Shown here one piece after another: positions 1 through 16,766 of a DNA stretch of 38,458 bases. A program made the position numbers and the translations under genes. Location of the stretch: sequence record ON470580; one strand, 5' to 3'. The stretch's first letter is position 1, and every line of letters starts with the position of its first letter. Origin of the DNA: Escherichia phage vB_EcoM-606R7. The notes beneath the pieces were generated by a model. The model saw only the letters and a list, made by a program, of their open reading frames with translations. It had not been told where the DNA came from and did no database searches.

Positions 1-642
1 TCAGCGACCAATCACCACAACCTGACCACCATCACCTTCATCTGCTGTGCTGATCTCCTGAGATACCACACGTGATCCCACGCGCATTTCACCGTACAGA
101 ACGGGCAGAACATTGCCCTGGGCAACCATATTATCCAGTGAAGAAAAATAGGTGTTCTGTTTGCCGTTATCCGTTGTCTGTGTGCGGGGGGTTTTGGGTT
201 TAGGGGCCAGCATCTGTGCAACACCGCCAAGCGTCATACTGGCACCGAGAGAAAACAGCAGATTACTCGCCATAATTCCTACCCCCGGCATCCATATAGC
301 AACCGCCATAACAGCCGCCCCCAGCACAGCCTGAAACACACCGCCACTTTTGGCTCCTGCCAGACGCGGCACGATATGGATCACAGCACCATTTGCCAGC
401 GGTTCATTAAGACGGGCTGATAATTCCGTTTCACCTGTATCACGCCCGGCAATGCGTACCTGATACCAGCCGTCGCTCAGCTTCTGACGAAACGCCGGGA
501 TCTGCATGGCCAGCGCCCGGATGGCTTCGGCCCCCGTTTTCACACGCAGATCGATGCGGCGGACAAATCGTTGTAAATCCCCGTAAAGGCAGATGCGTGC
601 CATGCCTGGTGACGCCAGAGGGAGTGTGTGCGTCGCTGCCAT
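1..642 (-). CDS. I: Tail assembly protein I (lambda gpI family)
   Basis: 213-aa ORF whose N-terminus (MAATHTLPLASPGMARICLYGDLQRF) and C-terminus (VSQEISTADEGDGGQVVVIGR) match lambda gpI as I recall it; overlaps K as in lambda. Confidence 0.9.
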   Translation of the reverse strand: MAATHTLPLASPGMARICLYGDLQRFVRRIDLRVKTGAEAIRALAMQIPAFRQKLSDGWYQVRIAGRDTGETELSARLNEPLANGAVIHIVPRLAGAKSGGVFQAVLGAAVMAVAIWMPGVGIMASNLLFSLGASMTLGGVAQMLAPKPKTPRTQTTDNGKQNTYFSSLDNMVAQGNVLPVLYGEMRVGSRVVSQEISTADEGDGGQVVVIGR

Positions 643-1252
643 TTGTCGGTATACCTCTCTCGTTTGCTCAGTTGTTCAGGAATATGGTGCAGCAGCTCGC
701 CGTCACCACAGTAAATGGCGGCATGATTCGGCACCGATGAACCAAAACAGCACAGCAGCACATCGCCCGGCTGCGCCGCTGACAACGGCACCTGATATAG
801 CCCTGTGGCCTCCAGATTATCCAGATAGAGATTCTGACCGTGACGCCACCAGTCATCCTCGCGATGAAAATCCGGCATCTCAATCCCCGCCAGATGGTAA
901 GCATCCCGGAACAGCGTGTAACAGTCCGTCACCCCGTGCTCAAAGCGCCGCCCGGTGAGATACGGCACACAGCGGAATTTATGAATCTCCCCACGGCAGA
1001 CCAGCCACCACGGCAAATCACTCTGCACCTGCAGCCGCCGGTCGGCCTCACTCNNNNNNNNNNNNNNNNNNNNNNNNNNNNNNNNNNNNNNNNNNNNNNN
1101 NNNNNNNNNNNNNNNNNNGCCTCCGGCTCACCGGAGATATTCACGCAGGGAAAATATCTGTCCCCCTCCGGCGTTCTCACCACGAAGCCGCACGACTCCG
1201 CTGGCGCACATCGCCGGGCGTGCGCCAGAATCGCTGATTCTGTCTCTGTCAT
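540..1252 (-). CDS. K: Tail assembly protein K (lambda gpK family, NlpC/P60 and JAB-like), interrupted by an N-run
   Basis: Two ORF pieces (929-1327 and 540-1028) flank the N-run and together match recalled lambda gpK (MTETESAILAHARRCAPAESCGFVV ... HAAIYCGDGELLHHIP). ATG at 1250-1252 read from the sequence. Confidence 0.85.
1054..1118. other. Assembly gap (65 N)
   Basis: Run of n characters in the sequence. Confidence 0.99.
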
Positions 1253-1256
1253 GGGT

Positions 1257-1955
1257 TTACTGCGAAAGTTTGTTAATGGAAAGGTAGCCGCCAAAATTGC
1301 CGACGTTATTGCGGAACTTGCAACCACTCAGGCATTTGCTGCACTTATCCTTCGTGATATCGGACGTTGGCTGGTCATATTCATCCGCGACCGCCGGGCC
1401 ATCATAACCGCACTCATCGCCGCGGTAGATCCAGGTGCAGGTGTTGGCCAGCATGATGCGCCCCGGAAAAACAGCGCCATCCGTTTCCGTCGGTGTGGAC
1501 AGCACAAAAGAGGCACTGACCGCGCTCAGTTCGCTGCACTGTTCGATGCGCCAGCGGCTGATCACCTCCTGCTCCGGATCGGCGTCACTGTTTCCGTTGA
1601 CGAAGTTCACCGCATCCAGAAAACGGGCGTAAACCTTACGCCGGACCACCGTTCCGCCGACCAGACTCTGCAGATCTTCCGCCATCCCGGTGACCATGCC
1701 GTACAGATTAGAGACTTTAAGCGTTGGCCTTGCACTGGCTCCTTTGCCGTTCATCTCAAATCCGCTTCCCTGAATGGGATAAGCCTGATACTGCCGCCCC
1801 TGCCAGGTGACTGGTTCACCTTTTTCGTTCTGCTCATTACAGAAGAAATAACGATCTCCGCCGACCTCTGTCAGATCAATTTCCCAGAGCACGACCAGCG
1901 CGGATTGCTCCGTTTTAGTGCACTCATTGAGTGTTTCCTGCTGTATATCCTGCAT
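1257..1955 (-). CDS. L: Minor tail protein L (lambda gpL family)
   Basis: 232-aa ORF, the same length as lambda gpL, in the lambda position between M and K; sequence matches recalled gpL closely. Confidence 0.9.
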   Translation of the reverse strand: MQDIQQETLNECTKTEQSALVVLWEIDLTEVGGDRYFFCNEQNEKGEPVTWQGRQYQAYPIQGSGFEMNGKGASARPTLKVSNLYGMVTGMAEDLQSLVGGTVVRRKVYARFLDAVNFVNGNSDADPEQEVISRWRIEQCSELSAVSASFVLSTPTETDGAVFPGRIMLANTCTWIYRGDECGYDGPAVADEYDQPTSDITKDKCSKCLSGCKFRNNVGNFGGYLSINKLSQ

Positions 1956-2311
1956 CAGTGAGTGACCTCTTCAAAGGTACAGTTAAAATCGGTATACATG
2001 GCATTATCCGAAATGCTCCACTCCCTGCAGACAACCCGGACAGTCCTGTTGTGTTTTGGCGGACGCCACAAAAAAGCACGAATCCCGGCATGACGGGATA
2101 AAAAACTGTCCAGCGCGGCACGGGAATATTCATCTGTGACACGAAATACCGGTTTAAACGTTTTCAGATCCGCATTCAGACCACCAGCCCGTCGCTGTTC
2201 ATATCCGTCACCAAACTTTACCGTAATAACTGATGGCTTTCGTGTCGTCTCCATCCCCTCACGGGGGATCCAGTTAAAAACTTCAGGCTCAGGCACTGTA
2301 CAATCCTCCAT
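1955..2311 (-). CDS. M: Minor tail protein M (lambda gpM family)
   Basis: ORF aligns with recalled lambda gpM (VRFGDGYSQR versus VKFGDGYEQR). Start placed at the MEDCTVPEP methionine; an alternative start is at 2254. Confidence 0.75.
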   Translation of the reverse strand: MEDCTVPEPEVFNWIPREGMETTRKPSVITVKFGDGYEQRRAGGLNADLKTFKPVFRVTDEYSRAALDSFLSRHAGIRAFLWRPPKHNRTVRVVCREWSISDNAMYTDFNCTFEEVTH

Positions 2312-5300
2312 CCCGACGCGATGACTGCATAATTGACACAACCCTGCTGTCGATCAGATCCACCAGTCCCCTGGCTGAGCGCGCATCTATCTCGCCATTG
2401 CTCCCTTGATTCTGAATGCTGATGTGATACACGGGAGAATAAACAAATCCACCACCACCATTCACATTTCCAATGGCCCTGACCCCAAGAGAGCCGTCCG
2501 CTGCCCGTGTCAGTGGCATGATTGCTTCAGGCCCGGCCTCGCCCATCAACCCGGCACCTTTCGCAAAAGCAAAATACGTCGGTGTATCCACAATAGTGTT
2601 ACTGTAAGCACTCAGATTTGCCGATGTGTAAACACCACCTTTTGCGTTTGCCACTGCCCCCGAAATCCATCCGCCGACCGTACCAAGCCACCCTCCGGCA
2701 CCGGAGAGTGATTTCAGTCCGTTAACAATGGCTGCATTCATCAGAATTTTTGAAACTTCCCGGAGAACTGAACTCCCCCAGTTCCTCCAGTCCACAACAT
2801 TCCCGGCCAGTGCATCGGAAATATTTGATACCAGCCCGTCCATCGTGGAAACGACAGCATCTGCCGCCTGTGAAGCATAATCGGTGGCACTGTCTGCCCA
2901 GTTGGTCAGTCCCTCCTGGAGTCCGGCATTCCAGTTATTACGTAAAGCATCGGCCTTTGCATAATAATCCTGCTGATCGCTGAGACGCTCTTCCAGATAT
3001 TTTTTATTCAGTTCTTTCTCCTGTTTCCACAGGGCTTCTTCAATTTCTCCGGCCTGATACTGTCTCAGCAGCTCGTTATTTTTCTGCTCAAACGCCTGCC
3101 GGATACTCCACATTTCCTGGAGTCGTTCACGCATCCGTGAGCCTTCACCATATCCCAGCAACTGCGCTTCGTCAGATGCCCGGGCACTGGCATTACTGTC
3201 CGCCAGACTGCTCTCATACGCAGCAAGCTGCTCACGAATCTTTTTCTGGTCGATGAGTGCTGCATTCTGCAAAAGCGTTTTTTTCTGCGCTTCTGACAGG
3301 GTTGATAATTCGCCCTGACTGACCTGATATTTCATCTTAGCCAGTTCAGTATTCTGCCCTGCCAGTGCTATTTGTTCTTTTTGCTGTTTAATCAGCCGTT
3401 TATAAATATCTTCTGTTTTTTCCGCTTCGGTCTTTTTATACGCTTTGGGTTTATTTGCCTGGTTATTTCGCCAGGCATCCAGTGAGTTATTGATATAATT
3501 CTGTCTGGCTGTCTGATACGCCTCTCCCACAAAGCCGAGATCATCCGCAGCATAACCCAGGCGGGCACGCTCACGGGCTTCCCCCTTCAGGCGGGACAGA
3601 GCCAGTTCGCGCTCGCTGTTATTCAGTGCGGTCTGCTGTTTATCATCCAGGGTTGCCTGTGGTAGCCGTAACGGTACATTCACCAGCCCCTGTCGCTGCA
3701 GAAGTAATTCATTACCGAGCCCGAGAAGGCGATTAAACTCGGTATGCTGCCCATTCATGATCAACAGGGACTGATACGCTTTGTTTTGTTCCGCGGCCTG
3801 TTGACGGATCAACGCCACCCGTCGCTCCTCCAGCCCGGCAAGCACATCCTGAATGGATTGCGCTTTGCCCTGCATTTGTGTGAGACGGGACTGTTCAACT
3901 GCCAGTTGATTTGTTGCTTCTGCAAGCCCTTCTGTGACAGTTTTTACCGACGTCATGTGGTTAATCATAAAACCGTTATCGGTTGTCCAGCCCGGGTTTG
4001 CCAGCACATACTGATAGCCAGCAATTTTTTCCTGTAAGGATTTAATCTTACTTTTCTGCTCGTCAATTAACCTGTTTTGCTCATCAAGTGCCTGCCGCGT
4101 CTTTTCCTCATTATCTGACGCTTCAGGAAGCGACATTGCCGACGTTTTCTGGCGAATTTCGTCGATTGTTGCGGCATACTGGCGTGCAGATTCTCTGGCC
4201 TGCTCCTGATTCTGATACATCGTGTACCAGGCCGTCGCCCCCAGCATGACGAGTCCCGGCACACCACCAACCAACCCCAGCGCACCACTTAACAGACGAC
4301 TCCCCACTGACGTGACAGTATTCAGCGTTGTCTGTGCAGCTGTTCTGGCCGCAATATTACGGGTAAGTGACGCCTGGGCAGCTGTCAGCTTCGCTTCTGC
4401 TGCGGCCTGCCTTTCGGTACCGCGAGCAGCAACAACCGCCTGTTGCGCACGATAAACCGCCGCACGCGCCCTGGCGGTTGCTATCTGTGTCCCCCGAAGT
4501 TGCGCTTCAGCAAGAGCCACTTCGTTTCTGGCTGCAGTAATTAATCCGGCAGTTGCAGATCCAGCAGACGACGCCATATTGCCAAAATATCGGGCTACCC
4601 CGACGGCAACCAGTGCGCCAGCTGCAGCAGCCACGGTATCAATATTGTCTGCAACACCATTCAACACCCCGGTGAGTGTCTTTGTCACTCCGCTTGCCTC
4701 GTTCGCACCACCAACCCAGGCCATAAAGGCGTTTTCAACTTTGGTTGCAGAGGATGAAACAGTATCAGGCATTGCTGCATATTCATCACGCAACGCCCCA
4801 AGCTGACTAATCAGTGCAGGAACAACCTTATCGGCGGTCAGTTTTCCGTTATCCGCCATGGCCTTCAGATCCTTACGGGCAACACCCATTCCCGCAGCCA
4901 GCGCACGAATAACACGATCGCCGTTCTCATTCACAGAGTTAAATTCTTCACCGCGCAGCACTCCCTGCGCCAGTGCCTGACTGAACTGCGTGATCACCGA
5001 ACTGGCTTCTGCTGTACTGGCACCGGATAATTTCAGGCCCGTGGAGATCGCCTCGGTGACTTTCAGTACCTCCTCAGAACTGTAGCCATACTCCCGCATG
5101 GAAGCTGCAGAGCGGGCAAAAAGGCTGGCGTTATCAGAAAACGCCGTTCCCGTTCTCTGGCTGATTGCCATTAATTCACGTTGTGATACCTGAAAATCAT
5201 CACTGGACTGTGAAGCCTGCTTCAGACGGGCATTTACTGAATTCCACTCATCGGCGAGAGAAATAAGATGACCGGTAGCAAAAGCTCCGGCAAATGCCCC

Positions 5301-5522
5301 CGCCATATTCAGTGCCGAAGATTTAGCTGTATTTATCTGATCCGTCACTTCTGCCAGTGCACGCCGCATTTCACGGGATGCAGCAGCGGACTGCCGGCCT
5401 CCGTTCTGCATGGTACGGTAGTAATCCTGCCCCATACGCGAAGCCCGGGAGATCTCTGACTGGAATGACCGGGAATTTGCCGAGATTTTAATAATCAGTT
5501 CACGTAATGTCGCCACACTCAT
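2289..5522 (-). CDS. Tail tape measure protein (gpH analogue)
   Basis: 1077-aa ORF, Ala/Gln-rich and coiled-coil-like, in the position between G/T and M; its C-terminal region resembles the lambda H C-terminal region. RBS GGAG precedes the ATG at 5522. Confidence 0.85.
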   Translation of the reverse strand: MSVATLRELIIKISANSRSFQSEISRASRMGQDYYRTMQNGGRQSAAASREMRRALAEVTDQINTAKSSALNMAGAFAGAFATGHLISLADEWNSVNARLKQASQSSDDFQVSQRELMAISQRTGTAFSDNASLFARSAASMREYGYSSEEVLKVTEAISTGLKLSGASTAEASSVITQFSQALAQGVLRGEEFNSVNENGDRVIRALAAGMGVARKDLKAMADNGKLTADKVVPALISQLGALRDEYAAMPDTVSSSATKVENAFMAWVGGANEASGVTKTLTGVLNGVADNIDTVAAAAGALVAVGVARYFGNMASSAGSATAGLITAARNEVALAEAQLRGTQIATARARAAVYRAQQAVVAARGTERQAAAEAKLTAAQASLTRNIAARTAAQTTLNTVTSVGSRLLSGALGLVGGVPGLVMLGATAWYTMYQNQEQARESARQYAATIDEIRQKTSAMSLPEASDNEEKTRQALDEQNRLIDEQKSKIKSLQEKIAGYQYVLANPGWTTDNGFMINHMTSVKTVTEGLAEATNQLAVEQSRLTQMQGKAQSIQDVLAGLEERRVALIRQQAAEQNKAYQSLLIMNGQHTEFNRLLGLGNELLLQRQGLVNVPLRLPQATLDDKQQTALNNSERELALSRLKGEARERARLGYAADDLGFVGEAYQTARQNYINNSLDAWRNNQANKPKAYKKTEAEKTEDIYKRLIKQQKEQIALAGQNTELAKMKYQVSQGELSTLSEAQKKTLLQNAALIDQKKIREQLAAYESSLADSNASARASDEAQLLGYGEGSRMRERLQEMWSIRQAFEQKNNELLRQYQAGEIEEALWKQEKELNKKYLEERLSDQQDYYAKADALRNNWNAGLQEGLTNWADSATDYASQAADAVVSTMDGLVSNISDALAGNVVDWRNWGSSVLREVSKILMNAAIVNGLKSLSGAGGWLGTVGGWISGAVANAKGGVYTSANLSAYSNTIVDTPTYFAFAKGAGLMGEAGPEAIMPLTRAADGSLGVRAIGNVNGGGGFVYSPVYHISIQNQGSNGEIDARSARGLVDLIDSRVVSIMQSSRRDGGLYSA

Positions 5523-5532
5523 TCTCCGGACG

Positions 5533-5554
5533 AAAAAAAACCGCCGAAGCGGTT
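5533..5554 (-). terminator. Terminator-like hairpin (UUCG tetraloop plus U8) in the T-H spacer
   Basis: Minus-strand RNA reads AACCGC-UUCG-GCGGUU followed by eight U, directly upstream of the tape-measure RBS. Confidence 0.4.
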
Positions 5555-5562
5555 ATGTTGAC

Positions 5563-5853
5563 TCACTGAGACACTATTAAAAGCGCGTTTTCCAGTCCGG
5601 CAAATGGATCTGATACGCCTTCTGTCTGCTCCTTCTCCCACTGAAGAAGCGCATCATTCAGTGGCACTTTGACCCCCTGCGCACCGTAAACAGCTGAAAC
5701 AATCTGGGCAGCCCGGATATCAGCCCGTTCGTCCCCCAGCGGACTGAACCTGTCAAATTCTGCCCACATCATGATTTCTGATGCTGACATTTCCCGGCGT
5801 AACTGTGACAATGTGCGCCCCATCCTGAGCGCCAGCATCATCAGAAAACGCAT
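5563..5853 (-). CDS. T: Tail assembly chaperone T segment (expressed as a G-T fusion by -1 frameshift)
   Basis: 96-aa ORF with the Phage_tail_T-like motif MLALRMGRTL...SEIMMWAEF; its frame is entered from G at the slippery site 5868-5876. Confidence 0.7.
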   Translation of the reverse strand: MRFLMMLALRMGRTLSQLRREMSASEIMMWAEFDRFSPLGDERADIRAAQIVSAVYGAQGVKVPLNDALLQWEKEQTEGVSDPFAGLENALLIVSQ

Positions 5854-5864
5854 CCCCGGAAGCG

Positions 5865-6251
5865 CTACTTTTTTTTAACCTCGCCGGCATCACTGATCAG
5901 TTCCAGAGACTGCCGAAGAAGCCGCGCATGCACCGGACCATACACGGCAATCACCTGTTCACGATCATCCTCTGAAAATACAGGTTGCAGTCCGGTATCA
6001 CACAGAACATCAATGAACAGTTCAACATCTGCCTCCAGATTTCGGCGGGCGCGCTCCGCAACGGATAACGGTGTCTCATCATCTTTTGCTTTAACGATCT
6101 CCTGCCAGCGCAACCAGGCTTCTGCAGAAGGTTCCCGTAATACAACCGTTGCTCCCTCCCATTCATGCACATCAACAGTTTTATGGCGAAACCCCGACAT
6201 CGTTGCCAGTGCCAGATTGCGGATATTTTTAGTCATCACATCTATCCTCAT
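5865..6251 (-). CDS. G: Tail assembly chaperone G
   Basis: 128-aa ORF between the major tail gene and the tape measure, ending GEVKKK-stop on a slippery A-run. Confidence 0.75.
   Translation of the reverse strand: MRIDVMTKNIRNLALATMSGFRHKTVDVHEWEGATVVLREPSAEAWLRWQEIVKAKDDETPLSVAERARRNLEADVELFIDVLCDTGLQPVFSEDDREQVIAVYGPVHARLLRQSLELISDAGEVKKK
5868..5876 (-). promoter_or_regulatory. Programmed -1 ribosomal frameshift site (A AAA AAG) for the G-T fusion
   Basis: mRNA reads GTT AAA AAA AAG TAG; slipping one base back at A AAA AAG continues as K-V-A-L-P-G-M-R-F-L into the T frame. The T frame has a TAA just upstream, so it can only be entered by the shift. Confidence 0.65.
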
Positions 6252-6958
6252 TAACTGACGGTAACAGTGCAGGAAGTGGAGGTCACCTTGTTAACAGGGC
6301 TTGCTGAATCAGAAATCTCGCAGGTATACGCACCGGCATCACCTGATGCTGCTGATGCCTTACTGAATGTTGCCGCCGTCTGTCCGGAAACAGGAGAACT
6401 ACCTTTCTTCCAGACATAAGAATAAGGCGGCACACCACCGGCAGCCTCAACCACCATTTCGAGTTTCGCTCCGGCAGAAACCTGCAGCGTGCTGTTTAAA
6501 TCGACCTTCACTTTCAGCGGCTCTGTCGTCAGCACAGGTTTACCTTTCAGGCGCAGGGAAAACGTTGCAGCCACAACACCATTGGTTCCTGCAGACCAGG
6601 TATGCTGACGCACCTCTGCCATAAAGGTAAATCCGTTTCCTGACGGAAAAATAACTTTAAAGCCATACGTGGTGTCATTGTCATAGGCACTGCGCAACGC
6701 GTTCTGGGCAGCATTGAGGTAAAAGTTGCCTGACATGGAAATCTCTGACGCGGCACCAAGACCGTTAATATTTTCCTGCTCAACAGAACACAGCGTGGTG
6801 ACATCAATATCCTGCTTTTGTCCTGCGGTAAACTGCACCTCTTTGATTGTACAGCTCAGACCAAGATAGCTGGCAGAATCCAGGGTTTCTGCTGTTACCG
6901 GTGCAGACGAAATCATAATTTTCGTCAGTTGCGAACGCTCAAAATTAGAGGACATACT
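6251..6958 (-). CDS. Major tail protein (gpV analogue)
   Basis: Position directly upstream of G/G-T; Ser/Thr/Gly-rich C-terminal region resembling an Ig-like domain. Start taken at MSSNFE behind RBS AGGAGA; the ORF track extends to 7006. Confidence 0.75.
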   Translation of the reverse strand, partial: SMSSNFERSQLTKIMISSAPVTAETLDSASYLGLSCTIKEVQFTAGQKQDIDVTTLCSVEQENINGLGAASEISMSGNFYLNAAQNALRSAYDNDTTYGFKVIFPSGNGFTFMAEVRQHTWSAGTNGVVAATFSLRLKGKPVLTTEPLKVKVDLNSTLQVSAGAKLEMVVEAAGGVPPYSYVWKKGSSPVSGQTAATFSKASAASGDAGAYTCEISDSASPVNKVTSTSCTVTVS

Positions 6959-6972
6959 CGTCTCCTGAAAAT

Positions 6973-6993
6973 AAAAAACCCGCCAGCGGCGGG
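6973..6993 (-). terminator. Hairpin plus U-tract immediately upstream of the major tail gene RBS
   Basis: Minus-strand RNA reads CCCGCC-GCU-GGCGGG followed by UUUUUU, about 15 nt before RBS AGGAGA. Confidence 0.35.
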
Positions 6994-7014
6994 TGGGTAA
7001 AATCATTAACGACC

Positions 7015-7359
7015 TCAGGCTATTACCTGAAATTCAAGCGTGGCTCTGCTCAGACGGGAATCAGGATCATAACCCTGAGTTTTAGAAATAACGGAGGGTG
7101 CAAGTTGCCTTACCGCATCAAGCGCCTGCTCACGGATATCATCTGCGTCATCAGGTACTGTTGCCCAGACATCGATCTGCACGGTAATTCTGGATTCAGC
7201 CTGACCATCAAGCACATCAGACGCAGTGTCAGACACCACAGAAAATACCAGCCATGGCGGAGATACCGCAGGCTTTCCCTCCGTCAGCGGGACCACATAA
7301 GGATAAACCTGTCCTCCGGCCAGTTGAGACAGCAGGGAATACAGTGTGGTCTCTCTCAT
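7015..7359 (-). CDS. Putative tail terminator (gpU-like position)
   Basis: 114-aa ORF directly upstream of the major tail gene; assignment by position only. Confidence 0.45.
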   Translation of the reverse strand: MRETTLYSLLSQLAGGQVYPYVVPLTEGKPAVSPPWLVFSVVSDTASDVLDGQAESRITVQIDVWATVPDDADDIREQALDAVRQLAPSVISKTQGYDPDSRLSRATLEFQVIA

Positions 7360-7805
7360 TTACTTAAGACCTCATCAATAGCCTGATTCATTCGCTGTAT
7401 GGCAATCTGTGCTGCCAGTTCCTCTGTCGTATCGAAAGCCGGGCGAATGAACGGATGCGCGGGCATGTTTATCGTTCCCAGCTCCACAAAGCGCCAGTAA
7501 AACGCATTTCGGGGATCACTGGCTTTCATGCTGTTATCACTGTTTCCGGTCCGCAGGTTCCGTCCACGAATGTGGACACCCGAGATAATTTCCCCCCGAC
7601 GCTTTGAACGCTGAGTGAGAACAACCACATTTTTCTTCAGTTTCCCGGTTCGCTCCGGCGCACGTTCAACAACTGCATCCCGCATAACTTCAGCACCGGC
7701 ACGGGTGGCATCGCGCAGTACCTTATTGTTTTCTGCCCTGCTGAGCGTCTCCAGATCCCGTGCAATATCCGCCAGACCTGAAAAATCAAGACTGAAATCC
7801 ATCAC
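7356..7805 (-). CDS. HK97 gp10-family tail completion protein
   Basis: 149-aa ORF starting MMDFSLDFSGL, typical of the HK97 gp10 family as I recall it; sits between the adaptor and the tail terminator. Confidence 0.6.
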   Translation of the reverse strand: MMDFSLDFSGLADIARDLETLSRAENNKVLRDATRAGAEVMRDAVVERAPERTGKLKKNVVVLTQRSKRRGEIISGVHIRGRNLRTGNSDNSMKASDPRNAFYWRFVELGTINMPAHPFIRPAFDTTEELAAQIAIQRMNQAIDEVLSK

Positions 7806-8140
7806 ACATTCCCCTTCTGAGAACAGAGTATCTCAAGCCGTGTGGCACGAGCATCCGGTATCGGCGGACCGTCTATACTCAGAATCGCGCCTTTGAATGC
7901 ACCAGTCAGCACTTTCAGACATGAAGTTGCTGTTACATCTCGCCGGAATCTCATCCAGACCCTCACTGTAGCCTGAGCAGTTTCTGCGCCTCCGGATATT
8001 CTCTCCCTGCCACTGATCCCCTTAACTTCTGCCCATATGGTTGCCCCCTCCGTCATTGTTTCCACAGGGTGCCCTGACGGAGACCGAACGGTGGTGGCAT
8101 TCAGAATAACCACACGATCACGTAATCTTCCTGCCTGCAT
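7802..8140 (-). CDS. Head-tail adaptor / head closure protein
   Basis: 112-aa ORF in the head-tail joining block; resembles the SPP1 gp16/HK97 gp9 adaptor family (recalled). Confidence 0.55.
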   Translation of the reverse strand: MQAGRLRDRVVILNATTVRSPSGHPVETMTEGATIWAEVKGISGRERISGGAETAQATVRVWMRFRRDVTATSCLKVLTGAFKGAILSIDGPPIPDARATRLEILCSQKGNV

Positions 8141-8148
8141 GAATCCTC

Positions 8149-8454
8149 CTATGTTCCGGGATGAAATCGATACATCCGCAGTCCGGTATAGAAAAAATCA
8201 GGCACTGCATCCTGCATTTCCCTGTTCTCGTACCAGTAGCCAACCAGTTGCATAAGACGCAGTTTTATCAGAGGTGTTATTACAAGCCCGGTCGTATCCT
8301 GCTCAGAAACAGTTTCATCGTAAAGCGTCCGGTTTAAAAACTTTTCAGCCTCTTCCCTGGCAGCAGCCAGATACATCATAAGAAGAGAATTCTCCTGTTC
8401 ATTGTCATCATCAATCCGGCACTGAACACGAAGCTCTTCCAGAGTGGGCATCAT
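8149..8454 (-). CDS. Head-tail connector protein (gp6-like)
   Basis: 101-aa acidic ORF following the capsid gene. Confidence 0.5.
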   Translation of the reverse strand: MMPTLEELRVQCRIDDDNEQENSLLMMYLAAAREEAEKFLNRTLYDETVSEQDTTGLVITPLIKLRLMQLVGYWYENREMQDAVPDFFYTGLRMYRFHPGT

Positions 8455-8465
8455 TTGGGCAACCT

Positions 8466-8654
8466 CTATGAATGCTGTTTTTTAGACTTATCAGCCCCCC
8501 GCGCAACAGGTGTTCTCTTATCAGAGACAATCCCAGCTGCAGTGGCAATTTCGCGTACCCGTTCGGGTAATTCTTTATCTTCATACTCACCGGCCCGAAT
8601 AATCTCAACACGCATACCGTCCGGTGACCATTTCAGATCTTGTTTCAGGATCAT
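8466..8654 (-). CDS. Hypothetical small protein between capsid and connector
   Basis: 62-aa ORF in the correct orientation in a tight spacer; no family recognised. Confidence 0.4.
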   Translation of the reverse strand: MILKQDLKWSPDGMRVEIIRAGEYEDKELPERVREIATAAGIVSDKRTPVARGADKSKKQHS

Positions 8655-8704
8655 GATTCTTTCACCTGTCAGAACAGGGGCGCACTTCTGCGCCCCCTGA
8701 ATGA

Positions 8705-9910
8705 TTACGCTGCTGCAATCTTCAGCAGTTTGATGGCCTGCGAATCGACCAGCATCCCGCCGGTGCGCTTGGTGGTATAAAAACCGACAAACGGTTTATT
8801 GGTGTACGGGTCACGCAGAATGCGGGTGCCGATACGGTCAACGATGGTGTAACCCCGTTTGAAGTTACCAAATGCAATGGCTTTCGCATCAGCGGCGATA
8901 TCCGGCATCTGTTCGTTTTCAGCGATACCGTAACCCGCCAGAGAGGACGGCTGCCCCAGTTCCAGCCCCGGACGCCACAGATAGTTACCCTCGCTGTCTT
9001 TAAGCAGACGGATGGCAAACAGGCTGTTGTTGTTCATCATGAACTTCGCGCCAGTGCGGTGTGCCTTACGCAGCGTGTAAATCAGTTTGATAATGGCATC
9101 TGCGGTCACTGCCGTCGCTTCGCCGGATACAATATGCTGAAGTTTGCCGAACGCCCGGACCTTGTCGGTTTCATCAGTGGACTCATACGCCAGGAACCCT
9201 TTCGGCTTCTTGGTACCATCGCCGGTGGTAAAGGCAATTTCTTCCTGTTCGGCAAATTCGGTTGCCAGCTCGCTGTTGATCCAGGCCTCCACGTTGAAGA
9301 AAGCATCATCCAGCATTTTCTGGGTGGCCTGCGGGTTACCGTAGATTTCCCCCATGAAAGGTTCAATCAGTCCCAGTTTTGAGGTGGCAGTCTGGGAGCG
9401 CGCGTCAGTCTCGCCAACCCATCCGGAAGCCGTGCCGCCCAGATTCACCAGTTTTTTGTAGTCGGAACCGCCAACGGTGATCACCGTGGCTTCCTGGCGC
9501 ATCACCACTTCATCTTTCAGCAGATTGAGAATGTTGCGATCCAGTTCTTCCGGCACGGCATAGCCGCCGTCTTCATCGGTGCCCACCTGTAATGCCTTAC
9601 GCTCCAGATCGCGCAGACCATCTTCACGGCCTTTACGCAGGAAGCCCACAAACGCTTCTTTATGCTCGGTGGCCAGTTTATTTTGCGCACCACCTGCCGG
9701 ACGTTTCAGCTCAAGCAGCTCTTTTTCAAGATCGCTTTTGAGATTTTCCAGCTCGCTGAGTTTTCCGTTCAGGGTTTCCACCTGCCCGGCAAGTTTGCCT
9801 TTTTCCTGCTCAATCGCCTCAACGCGCTTGTCGTTCTTTGCTTTGAAGTCGTCAAACTTCTGCTGCAGCTCCTGCGCGACCTGTTCGACATCTTTAATAT
9901 CAACCGCCAT
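8705..9910 (-). CDS. Major capsid protein, HK97 fold
   Basis: 401-aa ORF with an N-terminal coiled-coil delta-like region followed by a capsid domain; follows the prohead protease. Confidence 0.85.
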   Translation of the reverse strand: MAVDIKDVEQVAQELQQKFDDFKAKNDKRVEAIEQEKGKLAGQVETLNGKLSELENLKSDLEKELLELKRPAGGAQNKLATEHKEAFVGFLRKGREDGLRDLERKALQVGTDEDGGYAVPEELDRNILNLLKDEVVMRQEATVITVGGSDYKKLVNLGGTASGWVGETDARSQTATSKLGLIEPFMGEIYGNPQATQKMLDDAFFNVEAWINSELATEFAEQEEIAFTTGDGTKKPKGFLAYESTDETDKVRAFGKLQHIVSGEATAVTADAIIKLIYTLRKAHRTGAKFMMNNNSLFAIRLLKDSEGNYLWRPGLELGQPSSLAGYGIAENEQMPDIAADAKAIAFGNFKRGYTIVDRIGTRILRDPYTNKPFVGFYTTKRTGGMLVDSQAIKLLKIAAA

Positions 9911-9924
9911 CGTATTTCTCCTGA

Positions 9925-10611
9925 TTAGAAGTTCAGATTTTTCAGTGCATTCAGTGCAGAGCCCACATCCTCAGCGTCGCGCAGGGACAGTGCGCCATAG
10001 CCCCCGGCCATGAATGCTTTGGCCTGGGTACGGGAGAGTCCGACATCACGCAGGACTCTTTCGATTTTTTTCTGTTCGGGGATTTCCCCGCGGGCCAGTG
10101 CGTTCTTGACGTCGCTGATCCGCGCCTCGTCGTTAGACGGGAACGTCACCAGGCTGACTTCCCAGAGGTCGATTTCTTTCAGCAGAAAGGCTTCTTTGCT
10201 CCGGTCGTATTCCCAGTCTTTCAGGACGTACCCAATAGAAAGGCCGGTTAACGAACCGGCCTTCATGTGTGCATGTGCGCGTTTTGCGAGGGGATCATCA
10301 TCAATAAGCAACCGTCCCCTGACGTAAAGCCCGACATCGTCTTCCTTCATTTCGGTGTAAACACCGATGGGTTCATCCATGCGGTGCTGCCAGAGCAGCG
10401 CAGGTAACGCTTTTCTGTCACTCCACGCCCGCAGGGAAGCAGCAAATGCCCCGGACATCACCACATCATCGTGGCTGTCCTTTACACCAAAGACGGAGCC
10501 ATACCCTTCAAACTCACCGGAGTCACTGACAGATTTCAGACTCAGCGGTACATCAAGACGTTGTTTCGTCTGCATTGGCGTTATCCTTCTGCTTACCGGC
10601 TTTACTGCCAT
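9925..10611 (-). CDS. Prohead protease (HK97 gp4 family)
   Basis: Contains the EFEGYGSVFGVKDSHDDVV motif and sits between portal and capsid. Start is uncertain; the ORF overlaps the portal 3' end. Confidence 0.8.
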   Translation of the reverse strand: MAVKPVSRRITPMQTKQRLDVPLSLKSVSDSGEFEGYGSVFGVKDSHDDVVMSGAFAASLRAWSDRKALPALLWQHRMDEPIGVYTEMKEDDVGLYVRGRLLIDDDPLAKRAHAHMKAGSLTGLSIGYVLKDWEYDRSKEAFLLKEIDLWEVSLVTFPSNDEARISDVKNALARGEIPEQKKIERVLRDVGLSRTQAKAFMAGGYGALSLRDAEDVGSALNALKNLNF

Positions 10612-11794
10612 CGGAGGGTTTCGTGGTCATGTTCATCGGGGTGAGATAGACATCACCACCGGGACGCGGATTCATATCTTCCAGGTCGCGGCAGTCATTA
10701 GGAGAGTAAATTCCCCAGTTGATCCCGGTGGCGTAGGCTTCAAAACGGGACTTCATATCCCCGCGCAGTAACGCCCCGGCGTTAAATTTGGCGTAATAAA
10801 CGCCCTGCTTACTTTTTCGTACCAGTCCGGTGTTGATCCGCTGCTCAATGCGGGTCAGATACGGCACCAGTGAATAGTTGATAAATCCCAGCCCCAGCTC
10901 TTCGATATTGTTGAAGGTGGCGCGATCGGTGTTCTGCACCATGTGCAACGGCACCCGAAACAGACGACAGATTTCTTCAAGCTGAAACTTGCGGGTTTCC
11001 AGGAACTGGCTGTCCTCGGCGTTCAGCGCCATCGACTTCCAGTCCAGCCCCATCTCAAGGATCATCGGGCGGTGAGCATTGCCAAGCCCGGTGTGACGCT
11101 CCTCAAAATCTTTCTTCAGGCGCTCGTAAGCCTGATCTGACAGCGTCTGCTCTGTACGCAACACACCGGACGTCACCGCACCATTGCTGAACAGTCTGGC
11201 CCCGTGCTCTTCGGTCGCTGCCGCCAGCGATATTGCCTCGCGGGCATAGGCGATGGGATTCAGCCCCACCAGTCCGTCCAGCGTCAGCGTGCGCACATGC
11301 CAGATATCCTCCTGGCTCAGTACATCCGTGGAGCCGTCCGGGAATGTGACCTGATAGACCGGCTCCCAGCTACTGTTAAGCTTCGGTACCACACAGCCAG
11401 GATCGACGGGCAGCAGTTCAGCCACTTCGCCAAATGCTTTCACTTTGTAGGCGTAAAAGTTTCCCCTCAGGCACAGACAGGTGACCACCAGCTCCCAGAA
11501 CTCCTGCGGCGTCATATATCCATTGGGATGCGTGGAGATCAGCTTATGCAGACGTTCGCCGGTGGCTCTCTGTTTCAGGCTGCCGTTCAGGTGATACAGA
11601 TTGCAGGGCAACATCCCGACCGACTCTGCCAGCACCCTGACGCAGGAAAAAACCGCCGTCAGTCGCATGGCCCGCTGGCTGCTGATCTGCTTTCCGGTAT
11701 AGGTGTCGTATGACAGCCCGATAGCATCCGCCAGCTCTGCTGGCGTGGTCACCGGCGCGTCACTTTTTCGTTGAAATAATCCCGAAAAGAACAC
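10553..11794 (-). CDS. Portal protein (HK97 family)
   Basis: 413-aa ORF between the terminase block and the protease; typical portal length. Confidence 0.85.
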   Translation of the reverse strand: MFFSGLFQRKSDAPVTTPAELADAIGLSYDTYTGKQISSQRAMRLTAVFSCVRVLAESVGMLPCNLYHLNGSLKQRATGERLHKLISTHPNGYMTPQEFWELVVTCLCLRGNFYAYKVKAFGEVAELLPVDPGCVVPKLNSSWEPVYQVTFPDGSTDVLSQEDIWHVRTLTLDGLVGLNPIAYAREAISLAAATEEHGARLFSNGAVTSGVLRTEQTLSDQAYERLKKDFEERHTGLGNAHRPMILEMGLDWKSMALNAEDSQFLETRKFQLEEICRLFRVPLHMVQNTDRATFNNIEELGLGFINYSLVPYLTRIEQRINTGLVRKSKQGVYYAKFNAGALLRGDMKSRFEAYATGINWGIYSPNDCRDLEDMNPRPGGDVYLTPMNMTTKPSDGSKAGKQKDNANADETTS

Positions 11795-11976
11795 TATTTA
11801 CCTCCGCCGACAGACGGCTGTGTACGGTCGAGATATCGCGCCACCAGCCACGACCAGAACAGGCACAGCGCCCCGGCAACAACAAAACCCGCCGGGGGAT
11901 AAATCAGCCAGGCACCATACGCCAGCAAAAGCGCACCCAGCACGCCCACCAGTGGCGCGAGAATTATCAGAAACAT
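11794..11976 (-). CDS. Small two-helix membrane protein inserted between terminase large subunit and portal
   Basis: 60-aa ORF with two hydrophobic helices ([26 protein letters not shown]... [21 protein letters not shown]). RBS GAGGT precedes the ATG at 11974-11976; the stop overlaps the portal ATG. Confidence 0.6.
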
Positions 11977-11987
11977 AATGACCTCGG

Positions 11988-13745
11988 TTAAAGCGAGCGG
12001 ATGCCCACGCTGACCAGATGTTCAGACAGATCCGGCTCCGGTTCACCACCATTGACCAGCATCCGGCTCATTGCTGTAAACATCGCAACAGGGCCGTCGA
12101 TTTTGGCTTCCAGCGTGGATTTATTCGGGAAGATATTGTCGTTTTTGTCCGGTTTTACCGTAACGTTAGACATCATCCAGTTCATGACCGGATGATTGCT
12201 GTGATGGAAACGTCCGGCATAGACCAGTGATTCCGTTTCCTTCATGGCCTCTGACAGATTGCGAACCGTCTGCGGAACCTCCACCAGCGGTATCCCTTCT
12301 TCAGCCAGTGCTAGGCTGAACTGCATCGCGCTCCACGGGTCAAATCCCAGTTCCCTGAGGTTTTCACCACCAATCCATTCCAGTAAGTCACTTTTTATCT
12401 GAGCATGATCGATAACATCACCATCCGTCAGAATCAGCTTATCCATCTCCGCCCACTTCCGGTAAAGTTCTGCCTGCTGCCGCGAGCATCGTTCCAGCCG
12501 TCCTTCCGGGAGCCAGAATTTAAAATCGGCATGAACATGCCCGTTATCCGTTCGCCAGAGTTTTGCCGCCGCACAGATATCAATCTTATGAGCAAGGTCA
12601 ACGCCGACCCACATGGGATACGTTTTCAGCTCATGTCGCGGGGCAATGTATTCGCACTTCTCCCACTTAATCATGTCCATCCAGGCAGACTCTGCTGTTA
12701 CCCACACATTCATGTGTTTGGTAAAAAAATTCACCCGCGCAGAGACCTGTTCTTTCGCTTTTTTCGCCAGACGACGCAGATCATCCCAGCGTTTACAGAT
12801 GCCCAGGCCAGGATTCGCTTTCTGCCAGACCGTTTCATCAAACGGATCATCTCCCTCATCGAGGGTGTAAATAATCGCAAAGTAGGAGTCGTCTTTTACA
12901 GCGCCCTCCACGTCGCTGTTATAGCCACGCAATACCTTGATGGCATAATCACGCTGCTCGTAACAAATCCCTTCCTTGTTAAACCCTGCCGTGGTGATAC
13001 CAAATAAAAGGGACTGCAGACGGGCACCGGTTGCCGTTTCCAGAACGTCCCACACGTCACGGGTTTTATGTGCATGCAGCTCATCAATAATGGCGCAGTG
13101 GATGTTCAGACCATCCAGGTTGTTTGCATCCGAAGAAAGCGGTTCAAATTTTGATGCGCTCTGCTCCTGGTAAATCGCCAGCTTGTTGAAATCAAACAAC
13201 CGCCCGAGTGTCGACCGGGCTTTTCTGACCATATTTTTGGCGTCTTCAAACACGATTCTGGCCTGGTCACGCGTGGTTGCGGCTGAATACACCTCAGCAC
13301 CGCCTTCACCATCTGCCCCCGTCATATACAGACCGATACCCGATGACAGGGTTGATTTTGCGTTTTTACGGGCAACTTCGTTGTATGCTGTCCGGAACCG
13401 GCGCACCATCACCGGGCGCCCGCTGCCATCGCTGCGCATGACAACTTCCCCGGTCTCTTCATTGACCAGCGGAATGACAAAACCAAAAATATTAATGAGG
13501 ATAAATACATGCCAGTCCATCAACTCAATAGGCTGGCCTGCCAGCGCCCCTTTTACATGAGGCACAAATTTGTAGAAATTCAGGATGTGCTGCGCACGTG
13601 GTTCACTGAAATAAATCCCCCGCTCTTCGCCGTACTTTAGATCATCAAGAAAACGCTGGCAGGCCAGGCGGACAAATTCGCCAGCAACAATTTCTCCTGC
13701 AACAACACGTTCGGCGTAGCGGATCCCGTCAGCCACTTTTGCCAT
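11988..13745 (-). CDS. Terminase large subunit
   Basis: 585-aa ORF with a Walker-B-like IIDELH segment and nuclease C-terminal half; follows the small subunit. Confidence 0.9.
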
Positions 13746-14227
13746 CAGTCTCTCGCTTTTAAAAGCTCCGCCAGCGGATCAACATCATCCGGTCCGGCAA
13801 TATTTACTTTAGCCCGGCTTGCCGGTGACATACCAAACTCTGCAAGCATTGCCCGGATCCGCTTCCAGGCATCCGCTTTCATTGCCGCCGCGGGGTGCGC
13901 CTTAATCAGTACATCACCGCTCTGCGTTTCCGTGCGGTAGGTATACCCCTCAACATCGAGTGTTTCGCAGTGATGCCGATATTCGGTATAGGCTTCCACC
14001 AGCAACTCGAGTGCACGCGCATCAAGCTGAGAAATGATCCCTTCCGCATTCAGCTCTTCCGCCATTCGCCTGAACCAGTACTTCCCCTGTGCCCCTAAAT
14101 GCTGCGGAATTTTAGGGAGACCTTTTTCATCCTTTTTAGCGGTTTTTTTTGAGTCTTTAACGGGGCGCTTTGAGGGGTTGCCTCGTATCAAATGCAGGCG
14201 TGGCGGGGTTTTCGGAGGTCCTGACAT
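13745..14227 (-). CDS. Terminase small subunit (P27 family)
   Basis: 160-aa ORF with a basic N-terminus, immediately upstream of and overlapping the large subunit. Confidence 0.7.
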   Translation of the reverse strand: MSGPPKTPPRLHLIRGNPSKRPVKDSKKTAKKDEKGLPKIPQHLGAQGKYWFRRMAEELNAEGIISQLDARALELLVEAYTEYRHHCETLDVEGYTYRTETQSGDVLIKAHPAAAMKADAWKRIRAMLAEFGMSPASRAKVNIAGPDDVDPLAELLKARD

Positions 14228-14374
14228 AATCGGTCTTACCTATCAATCGTTTGTTCACATTTCCAAAAAAAGTTTTCGAACCTGCGGCGATGTGAGGAAG
14301 GGTCAGGCGGCGGTACTGAGCAGCCAGGGTTGCAGAGATTTGACCCGCCCCTCCCCTACAGATGGGAACTGTTA

Positions 14375-14725
14375 TCAATTGATGCGTTCGCGCGCTGTTT
14401 TTGCTTTATGACAGGGCCAGCACAGACTCTGCAGGTTACTGTCTGCATCCGTGCCACCATGAGCTTTCGGAATGATGTGGTCCACAGTTCTGGCTTCAAC
14501 GGCTCTCCCATTGCGCAGGCAGTTCTGACACAGATGATTATCACGCTTCAGTATGCGCGCACGTATGGCATCCCATTTCGAGCCATAGCCACGCTGGTGG
14601 CGGCTCAGTCCGCGTTGATGCTGTACCCATCCTTCGCCACGATGTTTATCGCAGTAACCAGAACTGTCTGTGGTTGTACCTGCACATCCACGCTTACGGC
14701 AGGCGCGTGGGATTCGTGATGGCAT
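14375..14725 (-). CDS. HNH endonuclease (packaging-associated)
   Basis: Cysteine pairs CRKRGC and CQNC with the HNH core DHIIPKAHGGTDADSNLQSLCWPCH; sits upstream of the terminase genes as in HK97-like cos phages. Confidence 0.85.
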   Translation of the reverse strand: MPSRIPRACRKRGCAGTTTDSSGYCDKHRGEGWVQHQRGLSRHQRGYGSKWDAIRARILKRDNHLCQNCLRNGRAVEARTVDHIIPKAHGGTDADSNLQSLCWPCHKAKTARERIN

Positions 14726-14767
14726 AAATACCTCATACCCTGCGAAATGTTTACCACGATAAAAAGG

Positions 14768-15247
14768 CTACTTAATGCACTGAGTGCGGATATACTCCTG
14801 TGCCCCTTCCAGTTGCATCTGCATCGTCATCAGCCGCTCTCTGAGGGTGAAATAATCCCGTTCAGCGGTGTCTGCCAGTCGGGGACTGGTTGCATTATCC
14901 ACGCCGGAGGCGGTGGTGGCTTCACGCACTGACTGACAGACTGCTTTGATGTGCAACCGACGACGACCAGCGGCAACATCAGCGCGCAGAGTTTCATTTT
15001 CAGCTTTCGCATTGGCTAATTCTCTCGAGTACTTTGCATCGAGCGCAGCAACATCACGCTGACGCTGCTGCATGTCAGCGATGGTGGCGGTCACCTGCTT
15101 CAGCTCACTGACTTTTTTATCACGCTGTTCTTTGTAGGTGATGGCGTTATCACGGTAATGATTGACCGCCCACGACAGGCAGACGATGATGCAGATAACC
15201 AGAGCATAAATAATCGCGGCGACTCTGCTCACTGATCTATTCCCCAA
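14768..15247 (-). CDS. Rz: Spanin inner-membrane subunit Rz
   Basis: Near-identical to recalled lambda Rz ([25 protein letters not shown]...[28 protein letters not shown]). Confidence 0.85.
14830..15012 (-). CDS. Rz1: Spanin outer-membrane lipoprotein Rz1, embedded in Rz in the +1 frame
   Basis: 60-aa ORF with lipobox VVGC and a proline run ([30 protein letters not shown]), matching recalled lambda Rz1. Confidence 0.85.
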
Positions 15248-15762
15248 CAGGCTAATGCGCTTTCCTGGTCACGACGAATAACCTGTCCATAGCAGTTATT
15301 TGAACGTATGCGGCAATCGCGCCCACCATCTTTTATCCACCAGCGAATCGCCTCGCATGCGCCCTTACGATCACCGGCATTCAGCCGCTTATAAAACGTC
15401 GACGGAAAACACTTACCGGGGCCAATGTTATAGGGACAAAATGACGCGATACCCGCTTTTTGTGGTTCGGTCAGTGGTACTTTAATATTGCGCTCCACCC
15501 ATGCCAGCGCCTTATCACGCTCAATGGCGTTGACCTGGTCGCATTTTTCCTTCGACAGTTTCATACCGGGAAAAACGGGTTTTCCATCCACCATCGTGGC
15601 ACCCCGACAGATGGTCCAGATGCCGGAACCATCACGGTATGCCGTTGTGTGGTTACCTTCTTTTTCATCCAGAAACTGGTCGAGAATATCAGGCGCGGGC
15701 GCACCGACGGCAATCAGTGCCAGAACGGCAGCCGACAGGCCGTATCTGATTTTTGCGTTCAT
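15229..15762 (-). CDS. SAR endolysin (T4-type lysozyme, phage 21 R-like)
   Basis: N-terminal weakly hydrophobic signal-arrest-release segment ([16 protein letters not shown]) followed by the E-x8-D-x5-T catalytic spacing ([16 protein letters not shown]). Confidence 0.85.
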
Positions 15763-15825
15763 GGATATTTATCAGGATTTATCGGTTTCTGCCCACGGAC
15801 AGGTTTATCTGTTCCGGTCAGTGAC

Positions 15826-16176
15826 TTAAGGTTGTGATTCCGGAGGAGTCTTCAGAGAACCAGTAATTCTTCCTGGTAGCTTTCCTTTGTAGGTTATCCA
15901 TACATTCTGCGCCTCTAAAATTACGGGGCGCTTTTCCGGCGACTGCTCATCCCCTTCACATAACCCGGCAGCGACATCCAGGAAGACCTGTCTGATGCTC
16001 CTTCTGGCCGCTGCCTCATAAAACTCCAGCGCAGCACCTTCAACACGGTCCAGCGAGATGTCCAGGTCAAAAATTTCACCGTCAAAGCGTTCTTTGTCCT
16101 GTAATGCTAAAGTTACCGTAACTTTATTCTCAAAATTGCGGATCCCTTTCACAATCAGTTCATAGTTTTGAGTCAT
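15826..16176 (-). CDS. Hypothetical protein inside the lysis cassette (YdfR-like)
   Basis: 116-aa ORF between holin and endolysin; resembles the Qin ydfR product in position and, from memory, in sequence. Confidence 0.5.
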   Translation of the reverse strand: MTQNYELIVKGIRNFENKVTVTLALQDKERFDGEIFDLDISLDRVEGAALEFYEAAARRSIRQVFLDVAAGLCEGDEQSPEKRPVILEAQNVWITYKGKLPGRITGSLKTPPESQP

Positions 16177-16180
16177 TGAA

Positions 16181-16396
16181 TTACTCTCCCCGTGCAGCCT
16201 TACGCTTGTCTTCTCTGATTTTGAAGTACAGATTTGTCAGATAAGTCAGGAAGCCCAGAACCAGACTCCCCAGTACACCAATCGCAGCCCACTGTGAAGG
16301 ACTGACCTGATCAAGCCACTGTAAAAACCAGTAGCCAGCACTGCCTGCGGAGGTGCCGTAGGCAATGCCCGTTGAAATTTTGTCCATGGATTTCAT
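16181..16396 (-). CDS. Pinholin, phage 21 S-type, with dual-start motif
   Basis: 71-aa ORF starting [29 protein letters not shown], matching recalled S21; Met1 and Met4 give the antiholin and holin forms. Confidence 0.85.
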
Positions 16397-16456
16397 AGCC
16401 TCACCTCCGCAAATAACGGATGGCGTAGTTTTACACTGAGAAATGAAAGGGATTTG

Positions 16457-16688: not shown

Positions 16689-16763
<75 letters not shown>

Positions 16764-16766
16764 ATA

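Follow-up and report, generated by a model that had tools for sequence, protein, structure and literature searches.

Terminator-like hairpins preceding the major tail gene and the tape measure gene of an HK97-type Escherichia coli prophage

The genome of phage HK97 was reportedly described by Juhala et al. in 2000 (J Mol Biol 299:27). Its RefSeq record (NC_002167) carries "putative terminator" features at 6692..6719, 7443..7462 and 8398..8422, together with others in three further gaps of the late operon. An intrinsic terminator has been predicted in the P22-like phage L, where it lies at the border of a module within a late operon served by one Q-type antiterminated promoter (PMC8022706). Terminator-like hairpins have stood on the genome maps of phage late operons since 2000, and the phage L authors still describe the roles of such intra-operon terminators as unknown, proposing either partial termination or the halting of transcription that is not antiterminated (PMC8022706). 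Here we analyzed two such hairpins, designated T1 and T2, which precede the major tail protein gene and the tape measure gene of Escherichia phage vB_EcoM-606R7 (sequence record ON470580) in a stretch of 38,458 nucleotides, referred to as the window; positions are those of the window, and (-) denotes its minus strand.

The DNA of the window is that of a lambdoid prophage of E. coli, of the HK97 type, with all structural and late genes on the minus strand. A preliminary description of the sequence had noted stable hairpins followed by U-tracts directly 5' of the ribosome-binding sites of the major tail and tape measure genes. Both were confirmed on the minus strand, at 6994-6978 and 5554-5539, as were the identities of the two genes (major tail, phrog_158, E 3.9e-108; tape measure, PF06120, E 1e-93). 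The same description had regarded such elements as unexpected within a late operon, which does not agree with the HK97 record, where putative terminators are annotated at both homologous junctions, i.e., between the tail terminator gene and the major tail gene (6692..6719) and between the chaperone region and the tape measure gene (8398..8422). In HK97, the hairpin in front of gp12, AACCCGCC-AGAT-GGCGGGTT followed by TTCTTTTT and CCAGGAGA, is plainly the T1 orthologue, with a nearly identical stem (CCCGCC/GGCGGG) and the same succession of hairpin, U-tract, AGGAGA and ATG; the loops differ. The junctions, the homologous gene order (tail terminator/major tail; chaperones/tape measure) and the conserved structure are thus common to the HK97 late-operon terminators and to T1 and T2. 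Unlike the window, HK97 has one more hairpin, its third, past the end of the major tail gene; its pre-tape-measure terminator follows the gp15 moron, whereas the terminator of the window stands there without a moron. Because T1 and T2 are orthologous to elements annotated in HK97, they are ordinary for this phage family.

On balance, we consider that T1 and T2 are probably genuine Rho-independent terminators in intergenic gaps of a single Q-antiterminated late operon. That transcription ends at these sites, that Q allows polymerase to read through them, and that they have a physiological role, we infer. By our appraisal of the record, terminator-like features at the two junctions are already known, and the ideas put forward earlier for the window, stoichiometry control and RNase protection, are standard proposals of the literature. 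What the sequence comparisons add is a nearly universal, covarying hairpin before the major tail gene, a correction of the start codon of that gene, and the recognition that two supposed copies of the hairpin motif elsewhere in the window are one split terminator. T1 offers a clean and small target for a long-standing minor puzzle, namely terminators inside an antiterminated operon.

Structure of the two hairpins and the start of the major tail gene

T1 (6978..6994, -) is the hairpin ACCCGCC-GCT-GGCGGGT, with its 5' arm at 6994-6988, the loop GCT and its 3' arm at 6984-6978; it has seven base pairs, six of them GC, and a dG of -12.0 kcal/mol, and is the best-ranked terminator-like site in positions 1-20000. 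It lies between the tail terminator (tail completion) gene Tc1 (7015..7359, -; PF11367, phrog_347), 20 nt past the Tc1 stop (TGA, 7017-7015), and the major tail gene (6251..6955, -). Just 3' of the stem, the transcribed strand carries the U-rich tract TTTTTTATTTT; the U-tract TTTTTATTTT (6977-6968, -), with a C at 6967, abuts the Shine-Dalgarno (SD) sequence AGGAG (6966-6962), which is followed by ATG 6955. T2 (5539..5554, -) is the hairpin AACCGC-TTCG-GCGGTT, with six base pairs, four of them GC, a UUCG loop and a dG of -8.0 kcal/mol, located 8 nt past the stop of the open reading frame (ORF) of T (GT frameshift). Its U-tract of eight T (5533..5540, -), the first two shared with the stem, is followed by GGAG (5527-5524) and by ATG 5522 and GTG 5516 of the tape measure gene (2289..5522, -). 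Since GGAG is only 1 nt from ATG 5522, the tape measure protein probably starts at GTG 5516 (MATLRELI, as in HK97).

Both hairpins have the features of intrinsic terminators: a GC-rich stem with a short loop, a U-tract on the transcribed strand, and a position outside coding sequence past a stop codon. This anatomy, a GC stem of 6-7 bp, a loop of 3-4 nt including UUCG, and U-rich tails of 8-10 nt, is present on the sense strand only. The A-run plus CCGCC reported earlier is the reverse complement of hairpin plus T-run, the late genes being on the minus strand. Strict terminator criteria (at least 4 GC pairs, dG at most -8, six or more T in 8) are satisfied by five sites on the sense strand of 17200..1, compared with 0.16 +/- 0.39 expected from 100 dinucleotide shuffles (maximum 2), and a chance origin of the terminator-like sites of the late region was rejected on this count. 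The five are a promoter-proximal hairpin after the Q gene, a hairpin after a tRNA cluster, a site in the prohead protease ORF, T1 and T2; four of them are intergenic. The only non-intergenic strict site, at 10242-10261 (-) in the protease ORF, is the hairpin GGCCGG-TTCGTTAA-CCGGCC followed by TTTCTATT, with -13.2 kcal/mol.

Other identities were considered for the T1 region. A search of Rfam 15 by gathering and E-value thresholds returned no family at gathering threshold in 5450-7100, and the best matches, which cover the terminator region, stayed below their thresholds (isrK, 18.0 bits compared with 50; P9, 18.3 bits compared with 43). A promoter for the tail genes at T1 was rejected, with no promoter-like site near 7000-7100 (-). 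A bidirectional or DNA-level element was likewise rejected, given a T-run confined to the sense strand and an upstream spacer rich in C and A.

An upstream ATG at 7006 raises the question of whether T1 is coding, in which case the hairpin would merely be codons of a major tail protein starting there, as in the annotation of phage Evi. This ATG is in frame, the reading frame is open, and GAGG lies upstream; even so, we give this reading practically no credence. The homologues of the major tail protein from 10 phages all start with MS(S/A)xxE(K/R)xQ, matching ATG 6955, and the annotation of HK97 gp12 begins at the equivalent ATG. A viral-contig search with the major tail protein alone, used solely for T-run polymorphism, returned only relatives that are 97-100% identical. 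Among 80 near-identical IMG/VR prophages, the T1 T-run has six T (T6) in about half and seven (T7) in most others; as this 1-nt length variation would frameshift the protein, the region is taken to be non-coding. The family N-termini and the T-run polymorphism rule out a coding N-terminal extension over T1, and the true start of the major tail gene is, judging from these comparisons, ATG 6955 and not ATG 7006. In Evi (LR597642; L001 20295-21050), and by the ORF caller, the gene runs from ATG 7006 and acquires a spurious 17-aa extension, MILPTRRWRVFYFQETS, through the terminator (window 6953-7006). One practical consequence is that at least one deposited phage (Evi) carries a wrong start for its major tail gene.

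Conservation of T1 and its candidate roles

Comparison with homologous tail operons, which the preliminary description had proposed as a check, was carried out using an alignment of major tail proteins from 10 phages (identity down to 28%) as the query. The survey comprised 78 loci in one-genome-per-species bacterial contigs, from Enterobacterales, Morganellaceae, Yersinia, Pantoea, Burkholderia, Pseudomonas, Salinicola and Orbus. Our analysis revealed a T1-type hairpin with T-run, its 5' end 35-44 nt before the major tail ATG, in 77 of the 78 loci, a count that includes five loci where A-T pairs can consume the T-run and one (L099) with a frameshifted major tail gene and no ORF called. Elsewhere in the 78 loci, the density of hairpin plus T-run is 0.31 per kb (sense strand) and 0.30 per kb (antisense strand), from which about two loci would be expected to carry it at the T1 position by chance. 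The element is absent only from two Pseudomonas relatives, locus L170 (of 78) and phage PARCL1pr.

The T1-type elements comprise 56 distinct hairpin sequences, the commonest values being a stem of 7 bp, a loop of 4 nt and a T-run of 7 (for the T-run, 72 distinct sequences). When covariation was computed on an alignment of 54 sequences, 90.9% of the stem cells were paired, compared with at most 59% with slid partners, and there were 38 double-change cells, a value reached by none of 500 shuffles. A median of 18 nt separates the upstream stop codon from the hairpin, and this spacer is poor in G (5%, compared with a background of 28%); the spacing would place the hairpin just outside the terminating ribosome and leave it free to fold. 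The element, including its T-run, survives in GC-rich Burkholderia phages, which argues for termination or another U-dependent function and not for a mere hairpin. Having been retained, by way of compensatory changes, in all but one of the 78 diverged HK97-type modules, T1 is under strong selection, and T2 is apparently under selection as well. No insert adjoins T1 in any of the 78 loci, as a moron terminator would have, and none adjoins T2 in the window. The best explanation would be that T1 is an ancestral and nearly universal part of the HK97-type tail module, with T2 being a facultative element at a hot spot of moron insertion.

The antiterminator Q gene (17208..17903, -; PF06323, E 8.6e-92) lies directly upstream of a putative late promoter with a proximal terminator, on the same strand as the late operon and with the lysis genes beyond. 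From their position, the candidate promoter (TTGCAA-17-TATATT, 17224-17196), which coincides with the end of the Q gene, and the proximal terminator (17141-17124), which together occupy 17121..17224 (-), resemble lambda pR'/tR'. The leader hairpin at 17144-17121 (-) has T-runs on both strands, and a second promoter-like site is found at 17036-17008. Another strong terminator-like hairpin (16466..16481, -) follows a cluster of four tRNA genes (Met, Lys, Thr, Gly) and precedes a P21-type holin gene. A comparison of the Q protein with PDB sequences gave no match. Q-loaded polymerase resists hairpin-dependent termination over a whole operon, and read-through of downstream terminators is the defining activity of Q.

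If T1 and T2 are terminators, polymerase unmodified by Q would form the GC hairpin and U-tract at these sites and drop its transcript. The targets may be transcripts that leak past the promoter-proximal terminator in the lysogen, as well as spurious or moron-driven starts. Q-loaded polymerase from the late promoter at about 17.2 kb would be resistant and would go on past tR', the hairpin at 16481, T1 and T2 to reach the tail genes, whose expression would thereby be tightly Q-dependent. The hairpins would remain in the mRNA, where they could cause slight residual termination and block 3' exonucleases. This account fits T1 and T2 because the U-tract is kept, the structure is sense-strand specific, and the spacing is clear of the ribosome.

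Several points weigh against it. The position of T1 is fixed before the most abundant tail protein, whereas a fail-safe role predicts no particular position. Only weak selection on T1 as a stop for leaking transcription would be expected, since tR' and the 16481 hairpin should already halt leak-through. The T2 hairpin is weak (-8 kcal/mol). In Burkholderia phage KS9, no Q-like protein was recognizable by Pfam at the expected position (gp17, gp18), yet the T1-type hairpin is present; if KS9 lacks antitermination, the hairpin could not be an efficient terminator there, the alternative being an annotation gap. Finally, no transcript 3'-end (Term-seq) or in vitro termination data were found in the literature for the HK97-type group. 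The only statement that we found on transcript mapping or function of intra-operon terminators was that for phage L (PMC8022706); a Pseudomonas ONT-cappable-seq paper and a lambda sRNA preprint contained nothing informative on the T1 junction, and the Hfq-CRAC supplementary data of Tree et al. could not be usefully connected with the junctions of tail genes.

The position of T1 gives some room to a different reading, in which the hairpins never terminate under Q and act after transcription, marking the borders of translationally coupled blocks with different output: the major capsid gene, the connector genes Ad1-Hc1-Ne1-Tc1, the major tail gene with G and GT, and the tape measure gene with those that follow. 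Each hairpin would shield the next ribosome-binding site from upstream structure and ribosome coupling, and the U-tract near the SD sequence could be an S1-binding translation enhancer; as a variant, the hairpins could set the 5' and 3' ends of mRNA segments that differ in stability. The geometry is tightly fixed, with 18-26 nt from the 3' end of the T1-type hairpin to the major tail ATG and with the U-run abutting GGAG. Hairpins cluster at every block boundary, genes inside a block overlap by 4 nt, and in the window the segment of the major tail gene, G and GT is bracketed by T1 and T2. T1 stands before the most abundant tail protein in 77 of 78 loci, and the same layout occurs before lambda E and the KS9 major head gene. 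Translation initiation sets the ratios of lambda late gene products, according to the title of a paper by Sampson et al. (1988, PNAS 85:5439). Enhancement of the next gene is not general, however, because T2 and the hairpin after the major capsid gene precede genes of low-copy products (tape measure, Ad1). A pure stabilizer would have no need of a U-tract, and two Pseudomonas relatives manage without T1. We regard such a post-transcriptional boundary as a rather unlikely explanation of the hairpins. It is unlikely as well, and slightly more so, that the hairpin-U-tract-SD unit of the major tail gene serves primarily not as a terminator but as a conserved post-transcriptional cassette, one that sets coupled gene blocks apart and raises or uncouples the translation and stability of the highly expressed structural gene behind it, the same device being used before lambda E and the KS9 major head gene. 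If true, tailed phages would possess, in their intra-operon terminators, a general and overlooked layer of control over the ratios of virion proteins.

The surveyed loci also bear on attenuation. Of the 78 loci, 51 have a hairpin 1500-1900 nt upstream of the major tail start, at the end of the capsid gene, and 17 have one directly past the stop codon of the major tail gene; ahead of the tape measure gene, 32-46 nt from its start, a hairpin is found in 40 of 71 related loci. Based on these positions, terminator-like hairpins mark the borders of capsid, connector, major tail (plus chaperones) and tape measure. Partial termination, even of Q-modified polymerase, could then produce a stepwise fall of mRNA from head to major tail to tape measure and tip, a role also suggested in the literature (PMC8022706), and the hairpins after the capsid gene, after the major tail gene and before the few-copy tape measure protein are well placed for it. 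The best conserved hairpin is not. T1 precedes the most abundant tail protein and follows genes whose products are needed at roughly 6-12 copies per virion in siphoviruses, and the attenuator reading, which suits T2, therefore fits T1 poorly. In lambda, a hairpin with U7 lies between D and E, whose products are made in similar amounts, and Q-type antitermination is generally efficient at intrinsic terminators. We consider it quite improbable that the hairpins act chiefly as stoichiometry attenuators. In our assessment, the candidate roles of T1 and T2 may include a fail-safe, mild attenuation, a boundary of mRNA segments and translation enhancement.

In the window itself, the capsid gene is followed by a strong GC hairpin, AGGGGCGC-AGAAGT-GCGCCCCT (8676-8697, -), with the poor U-tract GTTCTGAC. 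An extra 62-aa ORF (8466-8654, -; phrog_1020, function unknown) lies past this hairpin and is absent in Evi; the gap between the capsid gene and Ad1 is 250 nt in the window compared with 77 nt in Evi.

The tape measure junction and the split hok terminator

The junction that contains T2 is compact in the window, with 729 nt from the major tail stop to the tape measure start and no moron. It is occupied by the tail assembly chaperone genes (5563..6236, -; PF06222, PF06223), namely G at 6236-5865 and T at 5853-5563 in the -1 frame. A canonical -1 frameshift site, A AAA AAG (5874-5868, -), lies at the end of G, as in the lambda G/GT type. Among the 71 related loci, 31 have an insertion of 250-1000 nt between the chaperone and tape measure genes, as does HK97 with gp15. 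A terminator just before the tape measure gene is found in 24 of these 31 loci and in 16 of the 40 compact ones. The 16 compact loci are from different genera and have the hairpin at -32 to -34, with differing sequences.

These counts invite the suggestion that T2 is a mere leftover or landing pad of a moron, that is, of an inserted gene that brings along a promoter and a terminator of its own, without a function in the tail operon. The enrichment of terminators at junctions with an insertion agrees with it, as does the homologous HK97 hairpin, which comes after the gp15 moron; elsewhere in the window, in the hok region, a moron has visibly inserted into a terminator. On the other side, the hairpin is retained in compact loci of several genera with differing sequences, which suggests that T2 is kept rather than decaying, and of 80 close relatives 78 retain an intact T2, the T-run of T2 varying among T7, T8 and T9 in near-identical prophages. 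An origin of T2 as a functionless moron remnant is conceivable, and we are inclined to doubt it. The window belongs, by its sequence, to the compact class that nevertheless has a terminator, and T2 may be the landing pad or the scar of a moron.

The preliminary description had also seen a single A-run motif recurring at T1, T2 and two distant sites. For T1, T2 and the hairpin T3 (19675..19690, -; ACCCGC-TTCG-GCGGGT followed by TTTGTTTTTT) this did not stand, as the three share only the generic terminator consensus CCGC-UUCG-GCGG and have unrelated flanks; it held only for the sites at 19690 and 20285, which are a true duplication of 13 bp. T3 is located in the early-right (nin) region, outside the late operon. 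The direct repeat ACCCGCTTCGGCG is found at 20285-20273 and 19690-19678, on either side of a 595-bp insertion. The left copy (20273..20285, -; site 20285-20266), followed by TTTTTCC, is truncated; its 3' arm is lost and it does not fold into a hairpin. In Evi, which lacks the 595-bp insert, the hok/mok mRNA region leads straight into AACCCGCTTCGGCGGGTTTTGTTTTTTCCTGGCATTCTGG, i.e., T3 and its downstream flank, whereas vB_EcoS-689R5 has the same insertion arrangement as the window. T3 is, by this comparison, the original terminator of the hok mRNA, now placed after an inserted lipoprotein-like gene, and the two sites are one hok terminator split by a moron-type insertion. The insertion truncates hok's own terminator, so hok transcripts may continue into the lipoprotein gene. 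A dispersed repeat or mobile-element family was ruled out, given the unrelated flanks of T1, T2 and T3 and the single pair of true copies. The adjacent insert, absent from Evi, gives T3 the character of a moron terminator and suggests that terminator hairpins serve as joints for moron acquisition. The insertion contains an ORF of 130 aa (20212-19820, -), lipoprotein-like and matching phrog_16082 (function unknown). The hok/sok-type toxin-antisense locus of the nin region is at 20355-20679 (-), with an Rfam sok match of 102 bits and Hok/Gef PF01848.

The remaining features of the prophage agree with the HK97 type. The integration site adjoins tRNA-Ser and tRNA-Asn genes, and the tail region is 96.6-98% identical to that of phages Evi, phi467 and vB_EcoS-689R5. 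The gene order on the minus strand includes the capsid gene (PF05065), Ad1, Hc1, a gp10-like gene and the tail terminator gene, the major tail gene, chaperones G and T, and the tape measure gene. The major tail protein has 234 aa with a C-terminal Ig-like domain and is 72% identical to HK97 gp12. A run of N (bases masked or not sequenced) at about 1040-1110 breaks the minor tail gene region, where ORF translations contain a run of X. A DicF antisense RNA gene is located at 27232-27283 (+) in the early region (Rfam, 73.4 bits).

Comparison with known systems

Phage L has unrelated virion genes, and its junction is at the end of the procapsid module, in contrast to the tail junctions of the window. 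Lambda resembles the window in having a Q gene, a promoter-like site, a proximal terminator and a long late operon on one strand (the Q/pR'/tR' system), but leaves no room for a hairpin at U-V, where the gap is 7 nt, or at T/H, where the genes overlap. In the lambda genome (NC_001416; 6079-6135), the hairpin GGCCGC-CTGT-GCGGCT with T7 lies in the D-E gap, about 20 nt ahead of E, the gene of the major capsid protein. A further lambda hairpin, GGCCC-TTCG-GGGCC (7160-7202), is found just past gene E.

Burkholderia phage KS9 resembles the window in having a sense hairpin right before its major tail gene; it has another before its major head gene. Its three strongest terminator-like hairpins on the sense strand are at 16327-16352 (before major head), 19389-19407 (before major tail) and 27646-27667 (between two minor tail genes). 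Morons of the HK97 gp15 type have two counterparts in the window, as T3 terminates an inserted lipoprotein-like gene and the T2 junction is the classic gp15 moron site. Intercistronic stabilizer hairpins, such as the REP element after malE and those of the puf operon, separate the cistrons of polycistronic mRNAs that encode products required in unequal amounts. Neither these stabilizers, which lack a canonical U-tract, nor U-rich translation enhancers such as that of atpE, which lack a hairpin, are built like T1 and T2.

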